NCBI GenBank assembly: GCA_024233595.1
Contig: JACKPK010000010.1
Coordinates: forward strand, 2,373-66,372
Source of the DNA: Deltaproteobacteria bacterium
GTDB lineage: Bacteria; UBA10199; JADGCS01
Reading direction: 5' to 3'
Length of the DNA: 64,000 nucleotides
Every line of letters begins with the position of its first letter. Position 1 is the stretch's first letter. Of this stretch, positions 26,160-39,081 are shown piece by piece. The notes under the pieces are model-generated. The model was not told the DNA's origin, ran no database searches, and saw only the letters and a program-made list of their open reading frames with translations. Position numbers and translations under genes: made by a program.

Positions 26160-26333
26160 GGTCTTTTCTTAAAGCAATAGTTAAACGCGAAATAAAGGCT
26201 TATTTGGGCATTTATCTGTTTAAAAAAAATTGCCTAAGCATGCGTGTTTGGGTAGGGGTGTTCAGATAGGCCTTTAATAAGTTTTTATTTTGGGCAGTTT
26301 TGACTTTTAAAAACCATGTTAAGGAGAACAAAA

Positions 26334-26564
26334 ATGGCTAAGAAAAAAGCAAAAAAGAAAGCAACCACTACTAAGAAAAAATCAAAAGAAATGCTTTTGG
26401 TTGGTAGCAAAACTAAAGACGCTTTGCGTTCTGCAGGATGCAACGTAGCTGGTGATGCATTGGATGCATTGAACGAAGTTGTTTACTGGTACATCCAACA
26501 AGCTTCTACACGTGCACAAGCAAACGGTCGTAAGACAGTTCGTGGTCACGATTTCATGGCTTAA
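26334..26564 (+). CDS. Histone-fold DNA-binding protein (bacterial histone, Bd0055-like) with Lys-rich N-terminal tail
   Basis: 76 aa. AAGGAG lies 7 nt upstream of ATG 26334. The core 'MLLVGSKTKDALRSAG.NV.GDALDALNEVV......AS.RAQANGRKTVRGHDF' carries the histone-fold 'GRKT(V/I)...D' signature. The tail is 'MAKKKAKKKATTTKKKSKE'. Confidence 0.7.
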   Translation: MAKKKAKKKATTTKKKSKEMLLVGSKTKDALRSAGCNVAGDALDALNEVVYWYIQQASTRAQANGRKTVRGHDFMA

Positions 26565-26888: not shown

Positions 26889-27197
26889 AAAAATCTCCAA
26901 TAAATTCAAACTTTTTAAACGCCTATTCTGAATAAGCGTTTGGGAGCGCGTATCTACCAAAAACTTTGTCTCAGAGTCAATGAATCTTCCAAGAGAATCC
27001 CAAAGAAGCCTCTGATTTAGCCTGAATTGCATGACGAAGGTCTTATTTTTTCGCAAAATTATATGACGAAGGTGCTCTGGGTTTTCCTGTCTATTCTATA
27101 TAAATATAATAAAAACAATGTGTTATGTTTTTTGTCGTGTTTTTCAGGTGCAATTGAATCTTTTTACAGCTTTCCTGTTCTCTTATATAATACGTCT

Positions 27198-28238
27198 ATG
27201 GGTGATTTACGGTCAGGAGATAACTTGGGGCTGCATCGGGTGCTTGATACCCCCAAGGTCATTCCTCAAAACGCGAAACAATTGGATGCCAAGTCTTCGT
27301 TGTATGACAATGAACTTTGCGCGCAGGTGCATTTTTTACAGATTGATTCAGCGAGTTTCAATCAGCTTGCCAAGGCTTACCCTGATGACAGCGATTTAAA
27401 AGCGGCGGTGATGAGCATTGTGAATGAGCGGGGCAAAATGCAGAATCCTGTGACGGGTTCTGGAGGTATGTTTTTAGGGCAGATTGCCGAAATTGGTCCG
27501 AAGTTTCCAAACAAAGACATTCAGATTGGTGATGAGATCTGTTCTTTGATTTCATTAACAGCGACACCTCTTTTGCTTGAAGAAATCGAAAGTGTTGATC
27601 GTAAAAAAGAACGTTTGGCTGTTCGTGCCAAAGCTTATCTTTTTGCTAACTCCATTTTTGCTAAAATGCCGCAAGGGATTTCTCGTGGAGCTGCGTTGGC
27701 ATCCTTTGATGTTTGTGGCGCGCCCGCTTTGGCATTGCATCACGCCAACGCAGGGCAGGTCGTTTTTTTGATGGGGCTTGGCAAAGCTGGTCGACAAGTG
27801 GCTAGCGCTTTAAGGAATCGCTTTGGCAAGGACATCAATTTATTTGGCTGTGACGCTAGTCAGAATGCGGTCGATGATTTTAATCAAGAGTTTGAGTCTG
27901 GGCATTTTTTTACAGCGAACGCACAGGATCCGATTGCATTGCGACAGGCTTTGGTGTCGCGAGCACAAGATCTTGCTGACCTGAGTATCAATTGCGTCAA
28001 CGTACCTGACACAGAGATGCCAAGTATTCTTTGCACCAAAGACCAAGGTTGTTGTGTGTTTTTTTCGATGGCAACTGATTTTCAAAAAGCCACTCTGGGT
28101 GTTGAGTCAGTTGGCAAAGATATCAATTTAATCATGGGGCGTGGCTATGTCCCGGGTCATTCAGACTTGGTTGTGACTTTGCTTAAAAAAGATCCTTGGT
28201 TACTTAATTTTTTTGAAAATAATTTTGGCGGGGAGTGA
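27198..28238 (+). CDS. kdd: L-erythro-3,5-diaminohexanoate dehydrogenase
   Basis: 346 aa from ATG 27198. It has the blocks 'ERGKMQNPVTGSGGM', 'INCVNVPDTEM' and 'FFSMAT' that I recognise from Kdd of lysine fermenters. Confidence 0.8.
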   Translation: MGDLRSGDNLGLHRVLDTPKVIPQNAKQLDAKSSLYDNELCAQVHFLQIDSASFNQLAKAYPDDSDLKAAVMSIVNERGKMQNPVTGSGGMFLGQIAEIGPKFPNKDIQIGDEICSLISLTATPLLLEEIESVDRKKERLAVRAKAYLFANSIFAKMPQGISRGAALASFDVCGAPALALHHANAGQVVFLMGLGKAGRQVASALRNRFGKDINLFGCDASQNAVDDFNQEFESGHFFTANAQDPIALRQALVSRAQDLADLSINCVNVPDTEMPSILCTKDQGCCVFFSMATDFQKATLGVESVGKDINLIMGRGYVPGHSDLVVTLLKKDPWLLNFFENNFGGE

Positions 28239-29593
28239 TGATGGAACCTCATATCGAAAATCAAAATGAACAAATGATTCCTGAGCACCGACGTTTGCGC
28301 TCGGGCGAGTTCTGGCAAGTGATTCCTGCTTATCAAAGCGTCGATGAAAAAACATTTTTGGATTACAAATGGCAGCTTAAGCATTCTATCACCAGTGTGA
28401 AAAAACTTTTAGAAACGCTCAAAGACCTTGTGCCGGCAGATTTTTATAAAGATGTGGAAAAAGGTTTTCATCATGTTCCCATGGCGGTGCGCATTTCTCC
28501 TTATGTGATGTCTTTGATCGATTGGGACAACCCTTACGAAGACCCTTTGCGCAGACAGTTTTTGCCATTGGCCAGTCAGCTTAAACCTGACCATCCCGAA
28601 TTGCATTTGGACACTTTGCACGAGCAGGCTGATTCGCCTGTACCGGGCTTCACGCATCGTTATCCCGATAAAGCGCTTTTACTCGCTCTGGATATTTGCC
28701 CAGTGTATTGTCGTTATTGCACGCGCAGTTATGGTGTGGGTTTTGATACCGATGAAGTCGAGAAGGTTAAGTTTTCGCAAGACGTGGCACGTTACCAAAA
28801 AATATTTGAGTACATTAAAAGTCAGCCACAGTTAGAAGACATTGTGCTCAGTGGTGGCGATGCCTACATGTTGCGCTCCGAGCGCTTGCGCTATCTTGGT
28901 GAAAATCTTTTGGCGATCCCGCATGTGCGTCGTATTCGCATTGCGACCAAAGGACCGGCCATTATGCCCATGAAGCTTTTAACTGATCACGATTGGTATG
29001 GGGCTTTGCGCGACATTGTTGAACAAGGGCGGTACTTGCACAAAGAGGTTTGTGTTCACACGCATTTTTCTCACCCTCAAGAAGTCAGTGATATTTCAAA
29101 ACGCGCCATGGATCGCCTTATGGAAGACGGCATCACTGTGCGCAACCAAGCTGTTTTGCAACGTGGTGTTAACGATGACAAAAACATCATGGTGCTTTTG
29201 GCAAGACGTTTGGCTTACCTGAATGTGCAATCGTATTATGTTTACATGCATGATTTGGTGAAAGGGGTAGAGGATTTGCGCACCACTTTGCAAACTGGGT
29301 TGGATATCGAAAAATTTGTACGGGGTTCCACTGCTGGTTTTAACACGCCTAACTTTGTTGTGGATGCTCCTGGTGGTGGTGGTAAACGCAGCATTCATAG
29401 CTACGAACATTATGATCCCGAAACAGGAATTTCTATTTACACCGCACCCAGTGTGAAACCAGGGCAGTATTTTTATTACTTTGACCCCATCGACACGCTC
29501 TCGCCAAATATTCAAGCAGACTGGCAAAACCAAACCAAACGCGAAGAAATGAAAGAAGCCGCTCTTGTGGCAGCCAAACATGGTCGTAAATGA
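28238..29593 (+). CDS. kamA: Lysine 2,3-aminomutase (radical SAM)
   Basis: ~451 aa with radical-SAM motif 'CPVYCRYCTRS' and the KamA pattern 'LSGGD'...'VDAPGGGGK'. The start overlaps the kdd stop (GTGATGATG). Confidence 0.9.
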   Translation: MMEPHIENQNEQMIPEHRRLRSGEFWQVIPAYQSVDEKTFLDYKWQLKHSITSVKKLLETLKDLVPADFYKDVEKGFHHVPMAVRISPYVMSLIDWDNPYEDPLRRQFLPLASQLKPDHPELHLDTLHEQADSPVPGFTHRYPDKALLLALDICPVYCRYCTRSYGVGFDTDEVEKVKFSQDVARYQKIFEYIKSQPQLEDIVLSGGDAYMLRSERLRYLGENLLAIPHVRRIRIATKGPAIMPMKLLTDHDWYGALRDIVEQGRYLHKEVCVHTHFSHPQEVSDISKRAMDRLMEDGITVRNQAVLQRGVNDDKNIMVLLARRLAYLNVQSYYVYMHDLVKGVEDLRTTLQTGLDIEKFVRGSTAGFNTPNFVVDAPGGGGKRSIHSYEHYDPETGISIYTAPSVKPGQYFYYFDPIDTLSPNIQADWQNQTKREEMKEAALVAAKHGRK

Positions 29594-29728
29594 TATTGAT
29601 GATCAAAAAAAGAGTCTCTTGAAAATGTTAACCTTGTTAAATGCTGTTAACTTTTGTTTGAACTCAAAGTTCGTGCAAAGACGGTTTTTACTGTAGGCAA
29701 TTGTTAAGAATGAGGGTAGAATATTAGG

Positions 29729-32089
29729 ATGCGTCTTTTGGATTCTAAAATCTCTAGTCGTTCTATTCTCATGCTTTCTATAGCGACTTCAGTGGTGATT
29801 TTTTTGGCCTTTTTCCAATTGCATCACGAAGCTAAAAATCAAAATGAAGCTTACATTCAAAACCAGATCGATCATTTGAATCGCAATCTGGCTAGCGAGT
29901 TTGAACTCAATTTTACTCACCTCTTAAAAGCTCAAGAACGAATGGCCGCACGCTGGGAAGTTAATAAAGGCACTCCTCTCTATAAGTTTGAACAAGATGC
30001 TTTGCAGTATTTATCGAGTCACCACGAAATCCAAGCTCTAGAGTGGGTGAATGCCGACGGGGTTGTGGAATGGATCGTTCCTTTAAAAGGCAATGAAGGT
30101 GTTGTGGGGTGGGATAATAAAAAAAGCCCTGAGCGTTGGCGTGCTTTGCAAAGAGCGCGACGTTTGGATGAACTCGCGTTTAGTGATCCCATCAACTTAA
30201 TCCAGGGTGGCAAAGGCTTTTTGGTGTTTTCGCCAATTTTGTACGATAAAAAATTCGATGGTTTTGTTTTGGCGGTTTACCGCTTTGAAGAGTTGATCAA
30301 ATCTTTGATTGCATTGGATCAGCGACGCGAAGAAAATTACATTGAAGTTTTTTTTAACGGGCAAGCCGTTTTCCAATCTAAAAATAAGCCACCGGTGGAT
30401 TCTGATATTGCCTCCTTCACTGAAGTGAAAGTCATGGGACAGCGCTGGGGTTTTCGATTTGTTCCGGGACCACAGCTATTGCACTCATATCATTCTAATA
30501 TGCATGAGATTCTTCTTGGGCTTGGGGCTTTGGTGTCCTTTTTGGTGGGCATTGCGGTCTTCTTGGGATTGCACGCTTCCCGAAGAAAAACCCAAGAAGA
30601 GGAAGTGCGTCGTTTCTTGGATTTGATTTTTTCTAATATCCCTTTGTTGGTCATAGTGAAAAGCATTAAAGAAGACCGGATTGTTCGAATCAATCATGCG
30701 GCGGAATTGTTTTTTAAGGACTCGCTTCATGATCCTGCTGTTAATGAGCAACTCGAAAAAATCATAACGGCAGAAGGCGAAGTTGAACTGCCTTGTTCAA
30801 CTGACCGACGTTGTTTTTTAGAATGCCGTTCTTTGGTTTTAAATGATCATCAAGGACAGGCAGCGTATCTTTTGCAAATTGCAGAAGATGTGACCTTGAA
30901 GAAAAAAGAACGCGATAAAAGAAAGAATCTAGAAGCCCAGCTCATGCAATCACAAAAACTCGATGCGCTTGGAAAATTAGCTGGTGGTGTGGCGCACGAT
31001 TTTAACAATATCTTGGGCGGCATTATGGGTTACACCTCTTTGCTCAAGAGTAAGTTTTCTGAACAAGCAGATGTTGTTAAAAAATTGAATGTGATCGAAA
31101 GCTCAGCCATGCGTGGTGCGGATCTCACAAAAAAAATGCTCGGCTTTGCGCGCAAGGGTCAGTACGAGCAGGCTGTTTTGTCAGTGAATGATGTGGCTAC
31201 TGAAGTTTGTGATTTGTTATCAGAATCAATGCCCAAATCAATTCGCCTACATATCAATTTGAATCCCGATGTGGCCAGCATGAAGGGCGACACCACGCAA
31301 ATTTTTCAAGTCATTCTCAATGTTGCTAATAATGCTATAGATGCCATGCCAGACGGTGGCGAGTTGTCGGTTTCAAGCAAGGTCACTGTTTTAGAAGAAG
31401 ACGATGCGCAAAAAATGGGATTAACAGGTGGACGTAAATTCACAGAATTGCGCATTTCGGACACCGGCATGGGGATGCCTCAAGATGTCATTCAAAGAGT
31501 TTTTGAGCCCTTTTTCACAACCAAAGAAGTTGGTAAAGGCACCGGTTTGGGACTTGCGATGGTGCATGGGATCATGGCTAATCATGGTGGTGGTGTTTTG
31601 ATTGAATCGCAAGAAGGCAAGGGAACGACCTTGCGTTTATTCTTTCCGATCTTTCATCAGCATGAAACCAAAATGCACGAAACCAAAGGTCTTGATTCTG
31701 GTGAAACAAAAATTTTGCAAAACAGTCGCGTCTTGATTGTGGATGATGAGCCTATGATTCGAGATTTAGTCAGCGAGCTTTTGGAACCTTTGGGTGCTAA
31801 CATCATCACAGCAGGTGATGGTTTGGAAGCGGTTGAAAAATTCGAAGAACAAAAGGAACTCGATTTGGTGGTGCTGGATGTGATCATGCCTAATTTGGAC
31901 GGCTTGGCCACCTATAAAAAAATCAAAGAGATCGCTCCGCAAACAAAGGTTGTTTTTGCCAGTGGTTATTCTGAAAGTGATGAGATCAGAGAATTGCGTA
32001 AAACGGGTTTGGTGGATTTTGTTCAAAAACCCTTTAAGACCGAGCAGTTGGTTAATAAGGTTTCAACCCTGATTGCCAAATCCAAGTGA
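29729..32089 (+). CDS. Hybrid sensor histidine kinase (periplasmic sensor - PAS - HisKA - HATPase - REC)
   Basis: 786 aa with two TM segments bracketing a ~230-aa extracytoplasmic domain. H-box 'GGVAHDFNNIL', G-boxes 'DTGMGM' and 'GTGLGLA', and a receiver domain 'VLIVDDEP...VLDVIMPNLDG'. Confidence 0.9.
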   Translation: MRLLDSKISSRSILMLSIATSVVIFLAFFQLHHEAKNQNEAYIQNQIDHLNRNLASEFELNFTHLLKAQERMAARWEVNKGTPLYKFEQDALQYLSSHHEIQALEWVNADGVVEWIVPLKGNEGVVGWDNKKSPERWRALQRARRLDELAFSDPINLIQGGKGFLVFSPILYDKKFDGFVLAVYRFEELIKSLIALDQRREENYIEVFFNGQAVFQSKNKPPVDSDIASFTEVKVMGQRWGFRFVPGPQLLHSYHSNMHEILLGLGALVSFLVGIAVFLGLHASRRKTQEEEVRRFLDLIFSNIPLLVIVKSIKEDRIVRINHAAELFFKDSLHDPAVNEQLEKIITAEGEVELPCSTDRRCFLECRSLVLNDHQGQAAYLLQIAEDVTLKKKERDKRKNLEAQLMQSQKLDALGKLAGGVAHDFNNILGGIMGYTSLLKSKFSEQADVVKKLNVIESSAMRGADLTKKMLGFARKGQYEQAVLSVNDVATEVCDLLSESMPKSIRLHINLNPDVASMKGDTTQIFQVILNVANNAIDAMPDGGELSVSSKVTVLEEDDAQKMGLTGGRKFTELRISDTGMGMPQDVIQRVFEPFFTTKEVGKGTGLGLAMVHGIMANHGGGVLIESQEGKGTTLRLFFPIFHQHETKMHETKGLDSGETKILQNSRVLIVDDEPMIRDLVSELLEPLGANIITAGDGLEAVEKFEEQKELDLVVLDVIMPNLDGLATYKKIKEIAPQTKVVFASGYSESDEIRELRKTGLVDFVQKPFKTEQLVNKVSTLIAKSK

Positions 32090-32346
32090 GGGTGATCATT
32101 CGGTTCTTGCCAAGCTTGCCGGGGTTCGATATCACTCCCGTGGCTTTTTGAGCCCTATTAATGGGGGCCAAAACACAACCTTTTACCACATGGGAACAAG
32201 GTTTTACGGACTGACCGGTGCCAGATTTCAAAATCGATATTGCCAATCGATTCCGCAGGCGGCACTGTTATGCTACATTTTTATGGAATGTCGTTGCGAG
32301 AGCGTTTTTTGTCATCTCCTTCCGTTAAGACTCTGTTTTCAAACTC

Positions 32347-33921
32347 ATGACCAAAATTAATTTGGATCGCGATATCATCGATCATTGTCGGGAACTTGCT
32401 GAATCTGTTGCTCACCCGGTGCTCATCTACATCAATCGACACTCCACTGTTTCTATTGAACGCTCTGTGTTGCGTCTCTTGGGTTTTCAAGGCGCTCATG
32501 AAGTCGAAAAGGGCATGCCTTATCCCGTTTGCAATCTGATTGTCGACAAGCTGGGGCAGGACAAACTCAAAATGGGTGTGGCCTCGGTCATTGCTTCTAT
32601 TAAAAATCGTTACCCGCGTTGGAACCAAGCCAAAATGGCTGAGAAAATCATCAAAGGCGAAGTGAACTTTGAGCGTCTCGAAATTCTACCGCCTGATAAA
32701 GCGCAAGCTTTGCTCAAGCCTTGGATCGACACAGCTGTGCGCCACATCGATAAAATGCGTTACCGCAAAGAAGACATGCGCCACAAACTTGGCCGCGGTA
32801 AAAAAATGGGTCCTTTAAAATACATCATTGTGGCCACTGGTAACATATACGAAGACGTCAAACACGCGCAGTCAGCTGCCAAGCAAGGTGCTGATATCAT
32901 CGCCGTGATTCGTTCCACAGCACAAAGTTTATTAGATTATGTGCCGCACGGTGCCACAACAGAAGGCTTTGGTGGAACCTTTGCCACGCAGGAAAATTTT
33001 AAAATCATGCGCGAGGCTTTGGACGAAACCTCTGAAGAATTAGGCCGCTACATTCGTCTTTGCAATTACTCATCGGGTCTTTGCATGTCTGAAATTGCGG
33101 TCATGGGTGCTGAAGAAGGATTAGATTACCTTCTTAACGACGCCATGTATGGGATTTTGTTTCGTGACATCAACATGAAGCGCACGCTCATTGATCAGCA
33201 CTTTTCACGCATGGTGATTGCACGTGCAGGCATTGGCATTCAAACAGGCGAGGACAATTACCTCACCACCGCCGATGCTTTTCACAATCATCATCAGGTT
33301 TTGGCTAGCCAGTTCTTGAACGAAAACTTAGCCAAGCACGCTGGGTTGCGCGATGAGCAAATTGGCTTGGGACATGCCTTTGAAGTCGATCCCATGGTCG
33401 AAGACAGCTTTTTAATTGAATTAGCTATGGCGCAGATGGTGCGAGAAATTTTCCCACGTTGCCCCATTAAATACATGCCACCAACGCGACACAAGCAAGG
33501 TGATATCTTTTTTAGTCATGTCATGGATGCCATGTTCAATATGGTTGGTTCCATGACGGGGCAAAGCATTCAACTTTTGGGAATGGCAACAGAGGCCAAC
33601 CACAATCCTTATTTGCAGGATCGTTTTTGGGCTTTAAAAAGCGCCAACTATATTTTTTCGGCTTGTCGTTCTTTGTACGACGACGTGCAGTTTGTACCCA
33701 ATGGCAAGGTCATGCGTCAGGCGCGTCAGGTTTTAGACCGCACGCACCGCTTTTTGCGCAAGATCGATCAGCAAGGTTTGTTTGAATCCATTGAGCACGG
33801 CATGTTTGCCGAAATGCCGCGCGCCAAAGATGGTGGCAAAGGGCACGATGGCATTTTTGAAAAAGCAAGACAGTACTTTAATCCTTTTTACGATCTCTTT
33901 CAGGGACAAGGACGGAGATAA
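32347..33921 (+). CDS. kamD: Lysine 5,6-aminomutase alpha subunit
   Basis: 524 aa. Its size, position immediately upstream of the B12-binding beta subunit and TIM-barrel-like pattern fit KamD. Confidence 0.8.
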   Translation: MTKINLDRDIIDHCRELAESVAHPVLIYINRHSTVSIERSVLRLLGFQGAHEVEKGMPYPVCNLIVDKLGQDKLKMGVASVIASIKNRYPRWNQAKMAEKIIKGEVNFERLEILPPDKAQALLKPWIDTAVRHIDKMRYRKEDMRHKLGRGKKMGPLKYIIVATGNIYEDVKHAQSAAKQGADIIAVIRSTAQSLLDYVPHGATTEGFGGTFATQENFKIMREALDETSEELGRYIRLCNYSSGLCMSEIAVMGAEEGLDYLLNDAMYGILFRDINMKRTLIDQHFSRMVIARAGIGIQTGEDNYLTTADAFHNHHQVLASQFLNENLAKHAGLRDEQIGLGHAFEVDPMVEDSFLIELAMAQMVREIFPRCPIKYMPPTRHKQGDIFFSHVMDAMFNMVGSMTGQSIQLLGMATEANHNPYLQDRFWALKSANYIFSACRSLYDDVQFVPNGKVMRQARQVLDRTHRFLRKIDQQGLFESIEHGMFAEMPRAKDGGKGHDGIFEKARQYFNPFYDLFQGQGRR

Positions 33922-33923
33922 TC

Positions 33924-34805
33924 ATGGCGAGACCAAATAAAAAGAAAAGTTCCAGAGGCAGAGGTCGTCGCCCGCAATCTACACAAAATCAAGCGGAGCG
34001 CTCTTCTCAAAATTCACAGGTTGCGGCAGCCAAAGAAGCACCCGTTAAACGTAAGTTTGCTGGTAAAATTCGACTTTATGGCGATGTCGAGAATGATGGT
34101 GTTGTGCAGATCAGTTTCACCTTGCCGATGCCGGCTTGTGATGAAGCTCGTGTGGCAGCTTTGCAGTTCGCAGAAAAAATGAACATCCAAAAGGCTTCGG
34201 TCTTGCACATGGAAGCCATTGACGACGATTTTTCGTTTTTTGTTGTTTATGGTCAATGCGAAGCAGAAGTGGATTTGGAGCAAATTGAAGTTCCTAAATT
34301 AGACCACCCGCAATATGGATTTCACGAAATCAACGACATGCTTGGTCAAAAGCTAGATCGTAAGCTTGTTGTGTTGGGAGCTTGCATTGGCACTGACGCG
34401 CACACTGTGGGCATTGATGCCATCTTCAACATGAAAGGCTATCTTGGTGATTATGGTTTGGAGCGTTACTCGTGTTTTGAAGCCATCAACCTAAGAGCGC
34501 AGGTCGATGTGAAAGACTTGGCCGATAAAATCATCGAGAAGCAAGCCGATGTTGTTTTGGTATCGCGTGTTGTGACACAGCGAGATTCGCATATCGAAGA
34601 ATTCAAGAAGTTGTTGGCAGAGTTGTCGTCTCGCGAAAACGTGCCGGCAAAACTCATTAAGATTTGCGGCGGTCCACGCATGACTCACAAAGAGGCGATC
34701 GACATTGGTTACGACGCAGGCTTTGGTCCTGGAACATTGCCAGGGCAGGTGGCCAGTTACATTGCCACCGAAGCTTTACAGCGTTTTGCCGATCAACAAG
34801 ATTAA
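33924..34805 (+). CDS. kamE: Lysine 5,6-aminomutase beta subunit (B12-binding), with basic N-terminal extension
   Basis: 293 aa with cobalamin-binding 'GTDAHTVGIDA' (DxHxxG), 'GGPR' and 'GYDAGFGPG'. The first ~45 aa are Lys/Arg/Ser/Gln-rich. Confidence 0.85.
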   Translation: MARPNKKKSSRGRGRRPQSTQNQAERSSQNSQVAAAKEAPVKRKFAGKIRLYGDVENDGVVQISFTLPMPACDEARVAALQFAEKMNIQKASVLHMEAIDDDFSFFVVYGQCEAEVDLEQIEVPKLDHPQYGFHEINDMLGQKLDRKLVVLGACIGTDAHTVGIDAIFNMKGYLGDYGLERYSCFEAINLRAQVDVKDLADKIIEKQADVVLVSRVVTQRDSHIEEFKKLLAELSSRENVPAKLIKICGGPRMTHKEAIDIGYDAGFGPGTLPGQVASYIATEALQRFADQQD

Positions 34806-34817
34806 AGCTGTTGCTTG

Positions 34818-35231
34818 TTAGAATCGAAACCCAAAGCCGCGCATTTCGTCGCTGGCTTCTGTGTCTAGATCAACGTGCAATTCAAAAGCATCTAAATCGC
34901 CACCTTGCTCCACGTATTTTTCGCGAAACAAATGACAACCAATGTCCGCGCGTTCCTGTGCGTAGAGCATGTTTTCTTCGGCAACGCCTTGGTCATCAGC
35001 GTAGCCGACAACGGTGAGGCCGGTGATGCCTTCATTCAAAACATACTGGACGATTTCATCGATAAGAAATTCGTCTTCGGTGTCAAATAACTCCATGCTG
35101 GCGAGATCGACTTCGAAGAGATAATTTTCGAATTCTGTAGTTTTGTGGGATTGATCGTTTAAGGTCCTTGATGCGTTGTCTTCTTCGACATCGCTTTGGC
35201 CATAGCCGCTGGCCTGTTCGAACTTGTCCAT
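34818..35231 (-). CDS. OmpA-like (peptidoglycan-binding) domain protein, no obvious signal peptide
   Basis: 137 aa. 'LTVVGYADDQGVAEENMLYAQERADIGCHLF' resembles the OmpA_C 'GhtD..G....N..LS..RA' core. AAAGGAG RBS. Confidence 0.45.
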   Translation of the reverse strand: MDKFEQASGYGQSDVEEDNASRTLNDQSHKTTEFENYLFEVDLASMELFDTEDEFLIDEIVQYVLNEGITGLTVVGYADDQGVAEENMLYAQERADIGCHLFREKYVEQGGDLDAFELHVDLDTEASDEMRGFGFRF

Positions 35232-35462
35232 CAGAAAATACTCCTTTTGAGTTTACCGTAAACGGGATGGGCTCAAAACCCGTACTCACTATTATAATTG
35301 AGTCTGCAGCCCTTCACAATAGGCAGATTTTTCTCTTGGGTGCGATTTTGTGACTTTTTTCCCTATTTCCACTGAGCCATAAAATGCGGAAGGATAGGGG
35401 AGCGTGGACTCAAGATATTAAAATTCTTGGCAAAATCACCGATTTTACCGTAAGCTAAGGGC

Positions 35463-35834
35463 ATGAAAACGACTTTTAAAGTGCGCTTGAGCGAAGCCGA
35501 TGCCCATTACGCGGATCACCTGGTCAGTGGCGCCAAGGTGTTGGAGTTTTTTGGCGATGCCGCAACAGAGCTGTTGATTCGGCATGATGGCGACGAAGGG
35601 TATTTTAGAGCTTACGAGGATGTGGAATTCTTGGCCCCTGTTCGCAGCGGAGACTTTTTAGAAATTGAGGCCGAGATCATCAAGGTCGGGAACTCGTCTC
35701 GTCAAATGCAGTTTTCTGCTAAAAAAATCATTGAGGCCACGCCAAGTGCGCAGAACCCTCACGCGGCAACTTTATTAAAGGATCCTGTTCTTTGTGTGAA
35801 AGCAACGGGTACCTGTGTTGTTGTTAAAAACTAA
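35463..35834 (+). CDS. kal: 3-aminobutyryl-CoA ammonia-lyase (hotdog fold)
   Basis: 123 aa. The hotdog-size protein 'VRLSEADAHYADHLVSGAKVLEFFGDAATEL' is consistent with Kal and sits in a lysine-fermentation context. Confidence 0.7.
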   Translation: MKTTFKVRLSEADAHYADHLVSGAKVLEFFGDAATELLIRHDGDEGYFRAYEDVEFLAPVRSGDFLEIEAEIIKVGNSSRQMQFSAKKIIEATPSAQNPHAATLLKDPVLCVKATGTCVVVKN

Positions 35835-35845
35835 GAGATCGCATC

Positions 35846-36772
35846 ATGTCTGGTATTGGAGTCATACTTAATCCCAACTCAAAAAAGTTCAAACGCAATC
35901 CTTCTAAGTTGGATCAGATGAGTTTCATCATTGGCGACAAAGCCAGTTGCAAACCCACTCACGATCTTGATGATTTATATCGCGTTGCTGATGAATTTAA
36001 ATCGCGCGACATTGACGTGTTGGCAATTTCGGGAGGCGATGGCACTATTCATTGCACCTTAACCACCTTTATTAATGTCTATGGTGAAAAACCTTTGCCC
36101 AAGGTGACTCTTTTGCGTGGTGGGACCATGAACATCATCGCGTCTACTTTTGGTATAAAAGGCAGCACAGAAGAGCTCATGTCGAGTCTTCTGATGAAGT
36201 ACCACGAAGACAAAGAGGCAACAGAAAAAAAATTACGCCTCATGAAAATCAATGGCGCTTATGGTTGTATTTTTGGCATTGGTGTCGCCTTTAAATTCAT
36301 GCAAGAGTATTATTCAAATCCAAAACTCAATGCCTTTATTGCAGCCAAAACTTTAGTGCAGGTTCTTTCTTCTGGAGCCATAGATGGCAAAACTAGTCAG
36401 CGTTTGTGCCAGCGCTTTGATGCTGAAGTCATTGTTGATGGCAAAAAGCTTCCCTTTGCCAATTACAATGCCGTGTTTGCAGGATCTATTCGTCAACTGG
36501 GTTTGGATTTTAATGCCTTTCATCACATGCTGCACCAAAACGAGAACTTCCACACCATTGCGATGAACGTTTCTCCCAAAGAGCTTTTACCGCACATCAA
36601 AAAAATCTACGATGGGGAGCCTTTGCCCATTCCTGAACTCATGAATGAACAGGCTAAAAAGATGACCATCCAATGCCAAGAGCCCATGGGTTACACAATC
36701 GATGGCGACATGCTTGGCCCCGTCAAAGAATTCACTGTTGAGGCCGGGCCAGAGATCACGGTGTTGGTGTGA
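35846..36772 (+). CDS. Diacylglycerol-kinase-like (DAGK_cat / YegS-type) lipid kinase family protein
   Basis: 308 aa with 'VLAISGGDGTIH' (the GGDGT nucleotide-binding motif) and 'LLRGGTMN'. Confidence 0.7.
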   Translation: MSGIGVILNPNSKKFKRNPSKLDQMSFIIGDKASCKPTHDLDDLYRVADEFKSRDIDVLAISGGDGTIHCTLTTFINVYGEKPLPKVTLLRGGTMNIIASTFGIKGSTEELMSSLLMKYHEDKEATEKKLRLMKINGAYGCIFGIGVAFKFMQEYYSNPKLNAFIAAKTLVQVLSSGAIDGKTSQRLCQRFDAEVIVDGKKLPFANYNAVFAGSIRQLGLDFNAFHHMLHQNENFHTIAMNVSPKELLPHIKKIYDGEPLPIPELMNEQAKKMTIQCQEPMGYTIDGDMLGPVKEFTVEAGPEITVLV

Positions 36773-37566
36773 GTTCCTTAGCAAACAAAGTTGTGTTAAT
36801 AAGTGGTGCTAGCTCTGGCATTGGTGAGGCCTTGGCTTGGGAGCTGGCGCGTTTGGGCTGCCATTTAATTTTATGGGCGCGTCGTGAAGATATTTTAAAA
36901 AACATCACCAACAATTTAAGCAAAGAGTTTCCAGAACAAAAATTTGTTTTTTCAAAATGCGATGTCACGCAAACAGAAGCACTCCCAACTTTGCTTACGC
37001 AAGATCTTCAAAAATTAAATAAGGCTTTAGACATTGTCATTGTGAACGCTGGAGTGGGTGGCAACACAAGCGGCTGGGCAAGCGATTTTGAAATCACAAA
37101 AAAAATATTTTTAACCAACCTTGTGGGAGCAACAGCTTTGGTCGAAGCCTGTTTGCCGCTTTTTATCAAGCAAGGATATGGTCATGTCGTGGGCATTTCG
37201 AGCATTGCCTCGGTCAGGGGCTTGCCGCAAAACTCAGCTTATTGTGGTTCTAAAGCAGGGTTCTCAACTTATTTAGAAAGTTTGCGTTTGGATCTGCTCA
37301 CGCAGGGCATTACCGTGACAGCGATTCATCCGGGTTTCATTGCCACACCCATGACTGAAGACAATGGCACCATGCTGTTTTTGATGAGCGCTGAACGCGC
37401 CGCAAAACTCATCAGCAAAGCGATCATAAAAAAGAAAGCTCGCTATTCTTTTCCTTTGCCGATGGCGTTCGCAGAATGGTTTTTGCGAGTCATGCCTCAT
37501 GGTCTTTTTGATTTTGCCTTAGGGCTTTTGAGAAAACGCATTCAGGTGTTTAGGGAAAAAAGATGA
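36769..37566 (+). CDS. Short-chain dehydrogenase/reductase (classical SDR)
   Basis: 265 aa with a GTG start overlapping the upstream stop (GTGA). Motifs 'ISGASSGIG', 'NAG' and 'YCGSK'. Confidence 0.85.
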   Translation: MSSLANKVVLISGASSGIGEALAWELARLGCHLILWARREDILKNITNNLSKEFPEQKFVFSKCDVTQTEALPTLLTQDLQKLNKALDIVIVNAGVGGNTSGWASDFEITKKIFLTNLVGATALVEACLPLFIKQGYGHVVGISSIASVRGLPQNSAYCGSKAGFSTYLESLRLDLLTQGITVTAIHPGFIATPMTEDNGTMLFLMSAERAAKLISKAIIKKKARYSFPLPMAFAEWFLRVMPHGLFDFALGLLRKRIQVFREKR

Positions 37567-38217: not shown

Positions 38218-39081
38218 TTAATTGCTATAATCATAAAAACCTTTGCCGGCTTTACGGCCAATGTGACCGGCTTCGACAAGTTTGCGTAACAAGGGGCAAG
38301 GGCGGTAGCGTTCAGGGCTAAGGTTTTCTTGATAGACTTCCAGCACGCTCAAGATCACATCTAAACCAACAAAGTCAGCTAATTCCAATGGGCCCATGGG
38401 GTGATTGGCGCCGAGCTTCATGGTGTTGTCGATTGTTTTGGCATCGCTAATGCCTTCGTAAAGGGCGTAAGCGGCTTCGTTGATCATGGGAACTAAAATG
38501 CGGTTCACAGCAAAGCCGGCAAAGTCTTTGACCTTAGCAGGGGTTTTGCCAACGGCTTCGGCAAATTCACAACCCTGTGCTTCTGTTTGGTCATTGGTTT
38601 GCATGGCTTTAATGACCTCGACAAGGCGCATGACAGGAACAGGATTAAAAAAGTGCAATCCCAAAACCTTTTGTGGGTTTTTGTAGCAAGCTGCCAAACG
38701 CGTGATAGAAATGGAGCTGGTGTTGGTGGCAAGCGCACAGTTGTCGCTAAGAATTCCCGAGAGTTCTTTAAAAAGATTTTCTTTAGCGGCAGTGTTTTCG
38801 GTGATGGCTTCGATCACCAAATCGCAGGAGGAAAAATCGCTTAAGGAAGAACACGCTTTGATTCGAGAAAGAAAAGTTTCTTTGTCGGACTCTGTGATTT
38901 TTTCTTTGGCGACCAATTTGTCGTAGCCTTTGGCAATGCGTTCGATTTGTTTGTTGAGCTGAGTGGCATCGGTATCAAAAACCAAAACTTCCTTTGCACC
39001 GGCTTGTGCCGTGATTTGAGCAATGCCGTGTCCCATGGCGCCAAGACCAATGATGCCGACTTTTTGTTCTTTAAGGGTCAT
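38218..39081 (-). CDS. hbd: 3-hydroxybutyryl-CoA dehydrogenase
   Basis: 287 aa with '[14 protein letters not shown]' (Rossmann motif), 'ATNTSS' and '[12 protein letters not shown]'. Confidence 0.9.

Follow-up and report, generated by a model that had tools for sequence, protein, structure and literature searches.

A rearranged locus for a predicted 3,5-diaminohexanoate route of lysine degradation, with a candidate Kce on another contig, in a deltaproteobacterial genome

How might a bacterium degrade lysine through 3,5-diaminohexanoate when the locus that holds most of the dedicated genes lacks the one for the cleavage enzyme? This question is raised by a 64,000-nt stretch of DNA (hereafter the window) from Deltaproteobacteria bacterium (GCA_024233595.1, contig JACKPK010000010.1, positions 2,373–66,372 of the forward strand). 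For Fusobacterium nucleatum and Clostridium (Acetoanaerobium) sticklandii, Kreimeyer et al. reportedly described in 2007 the lysine fermentation genes kamA, kamBC, kamDE, kdd, kce, kal, and atoAD. We consider it probable, on the strength of the gene set, that the region encodes this known “lysine fermentation” route and that its host, a respiring bacterium, uses the route for catabolism.

Profile searches used NCBIfam models (NF and TIGR series, with curated cut-offs) and Pfam, and the source genome was searched by tblastn for some queries. KamD, Kce, Kal, KamC, and DAGK-like genes were counted in 61 genomes of the same class. C2, C5, and C12 denote other contigs of the source genome, and G and L numbers denote comparison genomes and loci. 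The source assembly is 78% complete (22% unassembled), so that absences from it are weak evidence. The label “Nitrospira” carried by some relatives is probably wrong; other relatives are labeled “Deltaproteobacteria bacterium” or “bacterium”.

Pathway genes of the window

The genes kdd, kamA, kamD, kamE, and kal were all intact and full-length, and their NCBIfam profile matches lay far above chance. Alignments to solved structures showed the cofactor and substrate residues to be kept in all five enzymes, including the motifs ERGKMQNPVTGSGGM, INCVNVPDTEM, CPVYCRYCTR, and DAHTVG. The kdd gene for L-erythro-3,5-diaminohexanoate dehydrogenase (27198–28238, plus strand) encodes 346 residues from an ATG at 27198 and passed its profile narrowly (NF052381, 200.6 bits, cut-off 200); a longer ORF starting with TTG at 27027 runs into rpsT. 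Its product aligned full-length (residues 7–343, 215 bits) with the solved 3,5-diaminohexanoate dehydrogenase 7DL3. The kdd stop overlaps by 4 nt the start of the next gene (28235–29593, plus strand, 452 residues), which encodes a KamA-family radical-SAM/PLP enzyme, a 2,3-aminomutase from a divergent subfamily of Myxococcota type (TIGR00238, 235.9 bits, cut-off 199.2). This overlap shows the divergent kamA to be tied to the pathway by translational coupling.

A hybrid sensor histidine kinase with Pfam domains CHASE-HisKA-HATPase_c-REC (29729–32089, plus strand) lies between kamA and kamD. Both subunits of lysine 5,6-aminomutase then follow on the plus strand and pass curated cut-offs: the alpha TIM-barrel subunit KamD (32347–33921; NF052384, 735.3 bits, cut-off 600; PF09043, E = 3.5e-223) and, after a 2-nt gap, the B12/PLP-binding beta subunit KamE (33924–34805; NF052385, 320 bits, cut-off 280). 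KamE has a basic 47-residue N-terminal extension and matched the solved beta subunits 9Q1A/8T0V/1XRS at 234 bits, with the DAHTVG (DxHxxG motif) and NMKG segments conserved. It is separated from kal by a 137-residue putative ORF on the minus strand (34818–35231), which had no Pfam or NCBIfam match and for which no homologue was found in related loci; a promoter-like site (10/12) lies 60 nt upstream of it, in a scan that as a whole was not above chance. The kal gene for 3-aminobutyryl-CoA ammonia-lyase (35463–35834, plus strand; NF052388, 166.1 bits, cut-off 160) is followed on the same strand by a DAGK_cat/YegS-like kinase (35846–36772; PF00781, E = 9.5e-11), which overlaps by 4 nt an SDR oxidoreductase (36769–37566; PF00106, E = 6e-43). 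No paralogue of the pathway genes was found elsewhere in the source genome, and the window copy is therefore the sole one. A sequence-only reading had named these five enzymes, had noted that unrelated genes split the set, and had seen neither kce nor a CoA-transferase in the 64 kb. The profile cut-offs and the matches to solved enzymes bear out the names, the hybrid kinase and the opposite-strand ORF are the genes that split the set, and the window indeed holds no BKACE and no AtoAD-type transferase.

Convergent to the kal unit is a 3-hydroxybutyryl-CoA dehydrogenase homologue, hbd (38218–39081, minus strand; NF004474, 379.5 bits, cut-off 408; NF005715, 365 bits), whose product is 39.5% identical to E. 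coli PaaH; hbd is not adjacent to the lysine cluster in other loci of the class. This gene, the lack of KamB/KamC, and the non-canonical type of kamA had gone unremarked in the earlier reading. Hbd likely catalyzes the predicted downstream step from 3-hydroxybutyryl-CoA to acetoacetyl-CoA. The source genome also encodes two thiolases, a FadB-like protein, a crotonase, and a CyoB-like haem-copper oxidase. The oxidase supports aerobic respiration, and together with the thiolases and the crotonase it points to oxidative completion to acetyl-CoA. Acyl-CoA dehydrogenases would not tell fermentation from beta-oxidation.

From these sequences we infer the enzyme activities of the following pathway, the direction in which it runs, and its oxidative end. 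KamA would convert L-lysine into beta-lysine, from which KamDE, with adenosylcobalamin and PLP, would form 3,5-diaminohexanoate. Kdd would oxidize this to 3-keto-5-aminohexanoate, and a distal Kce would combine the latter with acetyl-CoA to yield acetoacetate and 3-aminobutyryl-CoA. Kal would deaminate 3-aminobutyryl-CoA to crotonyl-CoA, which most likely would pass through crotonase, the adjacent Hbd, and thiolase to two acetyl-CoA, feeding respiration, not butyrate formation. The families are those of the F. nucleatum and C. sticklandii fermentation, with the same five in the window and Kce elsewhere, and the NCBIfam Lys_ferment and Lys_5_6 models match. In contrast to the fermenters, whose fetched loci read kal-kce-kdd-kamA-kamB-kamC-kamD-kamE, the source genome has an unlinked kce, an inserted histidine kinase, and a kamA of another subfamily that lacks the zinc site; it is without KamB/KamC, and no AtoAD was found. 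It also differs in having a haem-copper oxidase and beta-oxidation-type enzymes, consistent with an oxidative end rather than butyrate.

A Kce-type enzyme on another contig

In relatives, kce occupies the space between kal and the DAGK-like gene, which is reduced to 11 nt in the window. A whole-assembly search detected only two BKACE genes, on contigs C2 and C5. The first, KceC2 (C2:158719–159549), matched the solved Kce 2Y7D at 304 bits and 51% identity. 2Y7D is the structure of the Cloacamonas Kce. Against the NCBIfam Kce equivalog NF052387, KceC2 scored 368.7 bits, just under the cut-off of 382, which was exceeded in only 5 of the 61 class genomes, though most have an in-cluster Kce. KceC2 conserves His46, His48, and Glu230, which are reportedly the Zn ligands, and Ser82, Glu143, Arg226, and Asp231, said to be catalytic (2Y7D numbering; both sets are attributed to Bellinzoni, 2011). 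It also has Glu14, a position that is Glu in 37/37 cluster-embedded Kce sequences and Leu in the non-Kce BKACEs 3NO5 and BkaceC5. In the tree, KceC2 grouped with 2Y7D and the distal Kce of G003, G004, G032, and G045 (support 96/89), and this group was nested in the Kce clade (100/99 against other BKACE types); the long-branched 3NO5 was placed beside the KceC2 clade.

Could KceC2 have another role? An SDR gene lies 10 nt upstream, and BKACE–dehydrogenase pairs reportedly act on other beta-keto acids, a result ascribed to Bastard et al. (2014). KceC2 might thus act with this SDR on a different beta-hydroxy or beta-keto acid, for which its score below the curated cut-off, its identity of only 40–46% to the in-cluster Kce of the class, flanks that hold no lysine genes and vary from genome to genome, and the unassembled part of the genome could all be cited. 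Such a role appears unlikely, however, given the identity to, and grouping with, the biochemically and structurally characterized Cloacamonas enzyme and the full set of catalytic residues plus Glu14, unlike BkaceC5 and 3NO5. Moreover, G003, G004, G032, and G045 all have kamDE, yet their sole Kce-level BKACE match (E ≤ 1e-40) belongs to the KceC2 clade and is likewise distal, and in none of them is the SDR pairing kept. A distal kce recurs in sister families, and in G032 it lies 364 kb from kamD on the same contig. The preferred reading is hence, on the residues and phylogeny of KceC2, that this protein serves as the Kce of the pathway and that the gene for the “missing” cleavage enzyme lies on a different contig. 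This is the distal kce that the sequence-only reading had offered as one alternative, together with a genome-wide DUF849/BKACE search.

A dispersed variant is known from “Candidatus Cloacamonas acidaminovorans”, where the aminotransferase Kat stands in for Kal (Perret et al. 2011, PMC3149608). The source genome shares with it the dispersal of the pathway genes and a Kce of the same clade, whereas it keeps kal and therefore has no need of Kat.

KamA subfamily and partner genes

The window KamA reached 289.2 bits against the AblA equivalog TIGR03820, below the cut-off of 525.4, and passed only the broad TIGR00238 model. Against the Clostridium subterminale lysine 2,3-aminomutase 2A5H (252 bits), it keeps the radical-SAM cysteines C125/C129/C132 (CxxxCxxC), the PLP-binding K337, and S169, G171, D172, H230, Q258, and Y290. 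Arg134, Asp293, and Asp330, the lysine-specific substrate residues of 2A5H, are present in this KamA and in those of G003/G004. The zinc site is gone, with Cys268 replaced by Asp, and the C-terminal tail, unrelated to that of 2A5H, is without the CxCxxC-like motif of canonical sequences. Of 96 positions invariant among cluster-embedded KamAs, 24 differ, and in the KamA tree the sequence sits on a stem of 4.4 substitutions/site. Its subfamily relatives (62–81% identity) are labeled simply “KamA family radical SAM protein”. The window kamA is not of the canonical cluster type and belongs to the Myxococcota-type subfamily.

In Haliangium and Sumerlaeia, members of this subfamily stand alone, away from kdd and kamDE, and uses outside the lysine pathway therefore exist. 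This fact, and the lack of any other KamA/EpmB paralogue in the source genome, would fit a biosynthetic function, in which beta-lysine or 3,5-diaminohexanoate is made, for example, to serve as an osmolyte precursor, to modify a protein, or to enter a secondary metabolite. We regard this function as very improbable: Kdd, Kce, Kal, and Hbd act in degradation and consume the intermediates derived from beta-lysine, kdd is translationally coupled to kamA, the neighboring genes encode no acetyltransferase, ligase, or NRPS-type partner, and the same gene set forms one catabolic-type cluster in same-order relatives. Catabolism remains the preferred function.

Several partners of the fermentation enzymes were not detected. 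The reactivase KamB/KamC, present in 65 other loci fetched for comparison, was absent from the source genome by tblastn, and none of the 61 class genomes exceeded the KamC cut-off (control P. maris, 543 bits). For a family-I CoA-transferase, the source assembly gave no PF01144 match and no tblastn match to E. coli AtoD/AtoA; 8 of 31 class genomes had an AtoAD-type enzyme and the 7 same-order genomes had none, while the same-family G003/G004 gave weak two-subunit matches. The sequence-only reading had called for a genome-wide atoAD-like search and had held that a kce plus CoA-transferase operon elsewhere would count against an unusual pathway. A kce does lie elsewhere, and no CoA-transferase, paired or otherwise, was found in the 78%-complete assembly. 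The best candidate for acetoacetate activation is a divergent enzyme of the Acs/acetoacetate-CoA-ligase family (C12:26416–28332). No adenosyltransferase was found in the source assembly, which is probably an assembly gap, because 28/30 relatives have one.

Gene order and distribution in the lineage

The same-order MAGs “Deltaproteobacteria bacterium RIFCSPHIGHO2_02_FULL_40_28” (L007/G008) and “Nitrospira sp.” Bin_29_2_1 (L006/G005) carry a contiguous kdd-kamA-kamD-kamE-kal-kce-(DAGK-like) cluster. The source proteins are 64–65% (KamD), 57–59% (KamE), and 55–57% (Kal) identical to theirs, and in all three genomes kamBC is missing and the DAGK-like gene closes the cluster on its 3′ side. The source differs in its empty kce slot, the kinase that splits kamA from kamD, the 0.65-kb segment with the opposite-strand ORF that splits kamE from kal, and a KamA of another subfamily with just 33% identity. 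The order kal-kce-DAGK was seen in L006, L007, L093, L094, and L105–L110. The DAGK-like gene is a conserved cluster neighbor but a class-wide core gene, as it occurs in single copy in 60/61 class genomes, even where KamD gave no match; the SDR gene beside it was found in family f1 only (L085, L086, L088) among the loci compared. The hybrid kinase, a lineage-specific insertion, is missing from this position in every other class locus, those of the same-family G003/G004 among them. The synteny comparison proposed in the sequence-only reading therefore yields a contiguous cluster in the order and a different arrangement in the source. This arrangement is probably a rearranged form of the ancestral contiguous cluster, into which the hybrid kinase would have been inserted, from which the in-cluster kce would have been lost, its role being filled by a second-clade Kce located elsewhere, and in which the canonical kamA would have been displaced in situ by the Myxococcota-type KamA.

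Such a broken cluster with an empty kce slot could also mark a decaying or incomplete pathway, whose remaining genes are relics or catalyze partial reactions without degrading lysine to acetyl-CoA. The source genome has the only kal in its family (it is absent from G001–G004), several families of the class retain only very divergent KamD-like ORFs, and the assembly lacks a detectable adenosyltransferase and CoA-transferase. We judge decay improbable, however, as the five ORFs are full-length with intact catalytic and cofactor residues, a Kce with complete active-site residues is present elsewhere, tight coupling is retained (4-nt overlaps, 2- and 11-nt gaps), and the adenosyltransferase is probably lost to the assembly gap. 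Family f12 is kal-less as well, and these kal-less relatives might use a Kat-type route.

The functional pathway that we favor is not peculiar to this organism, in which the sequence-only reading had found it noteworthy. KamD was found in 57/61 genomes of the class, Kce in 43/61, and Kal in 28/61, and named MAGs of Bdellovibrio, Bacteriovoracia, and Myxococcota have KamD too. The pathway is hence a lineage-wide trait, in a form without reactivase genes and often without a CoA-transferase.

Five lysine genes in the window and a distal kce

Open reading frame (ORF) calling and profile searches with Pfam and NCBIfam models were used to define the gene set of the window. Five genes of the 3,5-diaminohexanoate lysine route were confirmed, all on the forward strand and all recognized by curated NCBIfam models: kdd (27198-28238; NF052381, 200.6 bits against a cut-off of 200), a kamA-family gene (28235-29593; TIGR00238, 235.9 against 199.2), kamD (32347-33921; NF052384, 735 against 600), kamE (33924-34805; NF052385, 320 against 280), and kal (35463-35834; NF052388, 166 against 160). 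Kdd aligned over its full length with the solved 3,5-diaminohexanoate dehydrogenase 7DL3 (215 bits), KamA aligned with lysine 2,3-aminomutase 2A5H (252 bits), and KamE was aligned to solved 5,6-aminomutase beta subunits, in which the DAHTVG and NMKG segment was kept. The motifs quoted in the sequence-only reading were each seen in alignments to solved structures, and KamDE, Kdd, and Kal are members of their enzyme families. A 47-residue N-terminal extension on KamE (33924-34064), strongly basic and of low complexity (MARPNKKKSSRGRGRRPQ...), precedes the family-model match, and the real start codon may lie further downstream than the annotated ORF start. The set had been described as split by other genes, and two such interruptions were found: a hybrid kinase with CHASE-HisKA-HATPase-REC domain matches between kamA and kamD (29729-32089), and a 137-aa ORF on the opposite strand that gave no family match (34818-35231). 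The CHASE hybrid sensor kinase was observed at this position in the source genome only; lysine-related sensing and unrelated insertion are both possible. No cobalamin or other riboswitch was detected, with zero Rfam matches in the 64 kb, and a scan for transcription units gave promoter and terminator matches in counts not above shuffled expectation.

The same reading recognized neither kce nor a CoA-transferase gene and proposed a distal kce as one explanation. The absence was borne out by profile searches, which found no BKACE and no family-I CoA-transferase gene in the 64-kb window. The window occupies C10:2373-66372 of an assembly of 1.79 Mb in 15 contigs, 78% complete, and a search of this whole assembly with the Pfam BKACE model recovered two genes, on contigs C2 and C5. 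The C2 gene (C2:158719-159549) encodes 276 aa, and its top NCBIfam match was Lys_ferment_KCE at 368.7 bits, slightly below the 382-bit cut-off; its alignment to 2Y7D, the solved Kce of Cloacamonas, scored 304 bits with 51% identity. His46, His48, and Glu230 (2Y7D numbering), which we take to be the zinc ligands, and Ser82, Glu143, Arg226, and Asp231, presumably catalytic, are all kept. Glu14 is also kept, a column that holds Glu in 37/37 cluster-embedded Kce and Leu in both 3NO5 and the C5 protein. The C2 protein is placed in the Kce family by its residues and phylogeny, and narrowly missed by the curated score.

In the BKACE tree, Kce-type sequences stand apart from other BKACE types (support 100/99) and include two clades. 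Clade I, found in families f2, f4, f5, f8, f11, and f21 of the class, always shows the order kal-kce-DAGK-like, the last being a DAGK_cat/YegS-like kinase gene, and is the ancestral Kce of the class. Clade II (96/89) holds the C2 Kce together with the distal Kce of G003 and G004 (family f1, that of the source genome) and of G032 and G045 (f12), a Bacteriovoracia MAG sequence, and the Cloacamonas enzyme, which has been characterized. The Kce-type residues and this placement indicate that the distal-kce alternative was right, and the in-cluster Kce is predicted to be functionally replaced by one from another clade that is encoded elsewhere. This accounts for the missing kce, and the solution is an ordinary one. 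On C2, an SDR gene (C2:157933-158709) is followed 10 nt downstream by kce (locus L003, 7934-9550); a conserved SDR-Kce module was ruled out, as the pairing does not occur in G003, G004, G032, or G045, and the flanks of the distal kce were unlike in every genome compared. The C5 BKACE (C5:96899-97783, reverse strand; locus L004, 8900-9784) scored 196 bits to the Kce model and fell far outside the Kce clade. It directly adjoins a biotin carboxylase/BCCP fusion gene and carboxyltransferase genes, with which it may form a different beta-keto-acid cleavage module.

Rearrangement of the cluster within the class

Fermenter loci of Bacillota, Bacteroidota, Fusobacteriota, and others show the order kal-kce-kdd-kamA-[2.6 kb]-kamD-kamE. 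The nearest relatives (loci L006 and L007 of the same-order genomes G005 and G008) carry a contiguous kdd-kamA-kamD-kamE-kal-kce-(DAGK-like) cluster. Same-family G003 and G004 show kamA-kamD-kamE-DAGK-SDR without the kinase insertion, their kce lies on another contig, and no kal was found anywhere in these two genomes. The gene order of the window derives from the ancestral contiguous cluster by rearrangement. The proposed steps would comprise insertion of the kinase gene between kamA and kamD, insertion of ~0.65 kb with the orphan opposite-strand ORF between kamE and kal, and a clean loss of kce, the gap from kal to the DAGK-like gene being 11 nt.

Among the 61 class genomes, KamD matches were found in 57 (34 above the curated cut-off), Kce matches at E <= 1e-40 in 43 (5 above), and Kal matches in 28 (17 above). 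The kamD-kce distance is 1-7 kb in many families, whereas f1, f12, and other families show no linkage of the two genes; in G032, an assembly of three contigs, they lie on one contig 364 kb apart. Bdellovibrio and Bacteriovoracaceae MAGs also carry kdd-kamD-kamE (L011, L042, L068, L070, L071). This distribution, together with the loci of the relatives, indicates that the pathway is a lineage-wide trait in which gene dispersal is common. Judged from gene content, the B12/radical-SAM lysine route is predicted to be near-universal in this poorly known, small-genome class and present in the phyla of predatory bacteria. Genomes with kamDE and without Kal were G001-G004 (f1) and G018, G032, G045, and G051 (f12), with a clade II Kce in G003, G004, G032, and G045; such kal-less genomes may rely on the variant pathway with the Kat aminotransferase. 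An additional 0.8-0.95 kb separates kamD from kamE in family f8 (L105-L107, from G058, G029, and G036), and several kb of extra genes separate kamE, kal, and kce in G017 (L110).

The DAGK-like gene of the window (35846-36772) has counterparts downstream of the cluster, or of kce where kal-kce moved, in essentially every class genome, and it sometimes overlaps kce. Since it is single-copy in 60/61 class genomes, including G016, G049, and G054 with no KamD match, it was set aside as a pathway enzyme and is more plausibly a core gene, probably lipid-related, whose synteny is conserved; a role as substitute reactivase was unsupported. About ten class genomes (G013, G015, G021, G023, G025, G035, G043, G047, G056, G059) carry a very divergent KamD-like ORF of about 475-620 aa (E 1e-11 to 1e-50 with the KamD model) directly upstream of the DAGK-like gene. 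It leaves no space for kamE, Kce and Kal matches are absent from these genomes, and the protein may have been repurposed and paired with the DAGK-like kinase. The SDR gene at 36769-37566 was ruled out as a conserved pathway member, being adjacent in family f1 only. A small ORF at 26316-26564, which precedes rpsT and kdd, has no connection with the lysine genes.

A divergent KamA and the auxiliary proteins

The window KamA shares 68-73% identity with those of G003 and G004, but only 33-41% with all other cluster-embedded KamAs, same-order ones included, and the f1 clade stands on a stem of 4.4 substitutions/site in the KamA tree. Its Fe-S cysteines, PLP Lys337, and SAM/PLP motifs are kept, as are Arg134, Asp293, and Asp330, presumably the lysine-binding residues of 2A5H. 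Cys268 and the C-terminal Cys motif are gone, and the zinc site is not retained. It keeps 72/96 otherwise invariant KamA positions, compared with 59/96 for E. coli EpmB. The protein is thus assigned to KamA by catalytic and substrate residues, its score falling short of the equivalog level. A large-database search placed it in a large subfamily whose members measure about 450-490 aa (62-81% identity) and come from Haliangium, Kofleriaceae, other Myxococcales, "Sumerlaeia", and unclassified MAGs; their only given name is "KamA family radical SAM protein". The subfamily kamA stands alone in Haliangium and Sumerlaeia. A Haliangium member (L117 7169-9428, contig JBNLBH010000051.1) adjoins a bacterial globin gene with no nearby kdd or kamDE, which indicates that this Myxococcota-type subfamily functions outside the lysine cluster as well. 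The window kamA overlaps kdd by 4 nt, exactly at the canonical kamA position, and no second KamA/EpmB paralogue was found in the source genome. The most economical reading is that a functionally equivalent aminomutase would have displaced the canonical kamA in situ.

In fermenters, the 2.6 kb between kamA and kamD codes for both reactivase subunits, KamB (361 bits) and KamC (548 bits), which were present in 65 fetched loci, mostly of Firmicutes and Bacteroidota. Neither subunit was found in the source genome or in any Bdellovibrionota, Myxococcota, or same-class KamDE locus (L005-L011, L029, L042, L068, L070, L071, L085-L096). Genome-wide, KamC exceeded its cut-off in 0/61 class genomes and 0/9 named Bdellovibrionota/Myxococcota-type MAGs, with MutS-like matches only in both groups; the Propionigenium positive control scored 543 bits. 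An AtoAD-type CoA-transferase gave neither a PF01144 nor a tblastn match in the source genome (78% complete), and was absent from each of the seven same-order genomes with a full cluster. Matches occurred in 8/31 class genomes; those of G003 and G004 were weak two-subunit matches, so that the 22% of the source genome missing from the assembly may yet hold a transferase. No PduO-type or CobA-type adenosyltransferase was found in the source assembly, which we treat as an assembly gap because 28/30 relatives, including all four same-family genomes, carry a PduO-type gene. Since the assembly lacks relevant genes, absences in the source genome alone are weak, and the class-level patterns are stronger. 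A MeaB gene on C5 marks a second B12-dependent system in this genome.

Proposed downstream steps and meaning for the lineage

A 3-hydroxybutyryl-CoA dehydrogenase homologue (Hbd) at 38218-39081 on the reverse strand (379.5 bits) had been overlooked in the sequence-only reading. The source genome also encodes a second Hbd, two thiolases, a FadB-like protein, a crotonase, and a CyoB-like haem-copper oxidase. From the presence of these enzymes, we infer an oxidative route in which crotonyl-CoA would be converted through acetoacetyl-CoA to two acetyl-CoA, not to butyrate. A search for Acs/AACS enzymes gave two matches. The first is a genuine Acs, scoring 974 bits to TIGR02188. The second (C12:26416-28332) is a divergent enzyme of the Acs/acetoacetate-CoA-ligase family that could not be assigned as a true acetoacetyl-CoA synthetase, at 443 bits against a cut-off of 639. 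This ligase is the sole candidate for acetoacetate activation, and no recurrent neighbor gene able to fill this step was found among the class loci.

The 3,5-diaminohexanoate lysine pathway is known from Fusobacterium and Clostridium (PMC3149608). The system of the source genome is predicted to work like theirs, and resembles Cloacamonas in its gene dispersal and Kce clade. Unlike those fermenters, the class is without KamBC and usually without AtoAD, and the route is tied to beta-oxidation enzymes and an oxidase. The B12/radical-SAM lysine route is usually taught as fermentation by anaerobes; the source genome does not hold a complete fermentation pathway in this sense, as the searches recovered neither KamBC nor AtoAD. 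It is quite probable that the known route here serves lysine catabolism in a respiring bacterium. Overall, the lineage shows a known pathway in a variant of modest interest, one that has no reactivase, usually no transferase, and an apparently oxidative course. Full-text search of the accessible literature returned no account of the route in Bdellovibrio/Bdellovibrionota, Myxococcus/Myxococcota, predators, or aerobes, though a 2007 JBC paper might mention such genomes.

More tentatively, and as a combination that we consider rather unlikely to hold as a whole, the entire class and its Bdellovibrionota/Myxococcota relatives might run the lysine route as respiratory, oxygen-compatible catabolism built unlike the textbook version. 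KamDE would then function with no KamB/KamC reactivase. Activation of acetoacetate would need no AtoAD-type transferase and might instead depend on the Acs/AACS-like ligase, and the canonical KamA of f1 would have given way in place to a zinc-less enzyme of the Myxococcota type.

The finding as originally posed is mostly ordinary, as the missing enzyme is encoded elsewhere and each gene is recognized by curated models; such value as it has lies in the lineage-level picture. This raises the questions of how lysine 5,6-aminomutase activity is kept up without KamBC and how acetoacetate is recovered. For annotation, "butyrate from lysine" completeness calls based on kamA/kamD/kamE/kdd markers would misclassify such organisms as fermenters. 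If the respiratory reading is true, this lineage would have a naturally inactivation-resistant B12 aminomutase, or else an unrecognized system for reactivation and acetoacetate activation.
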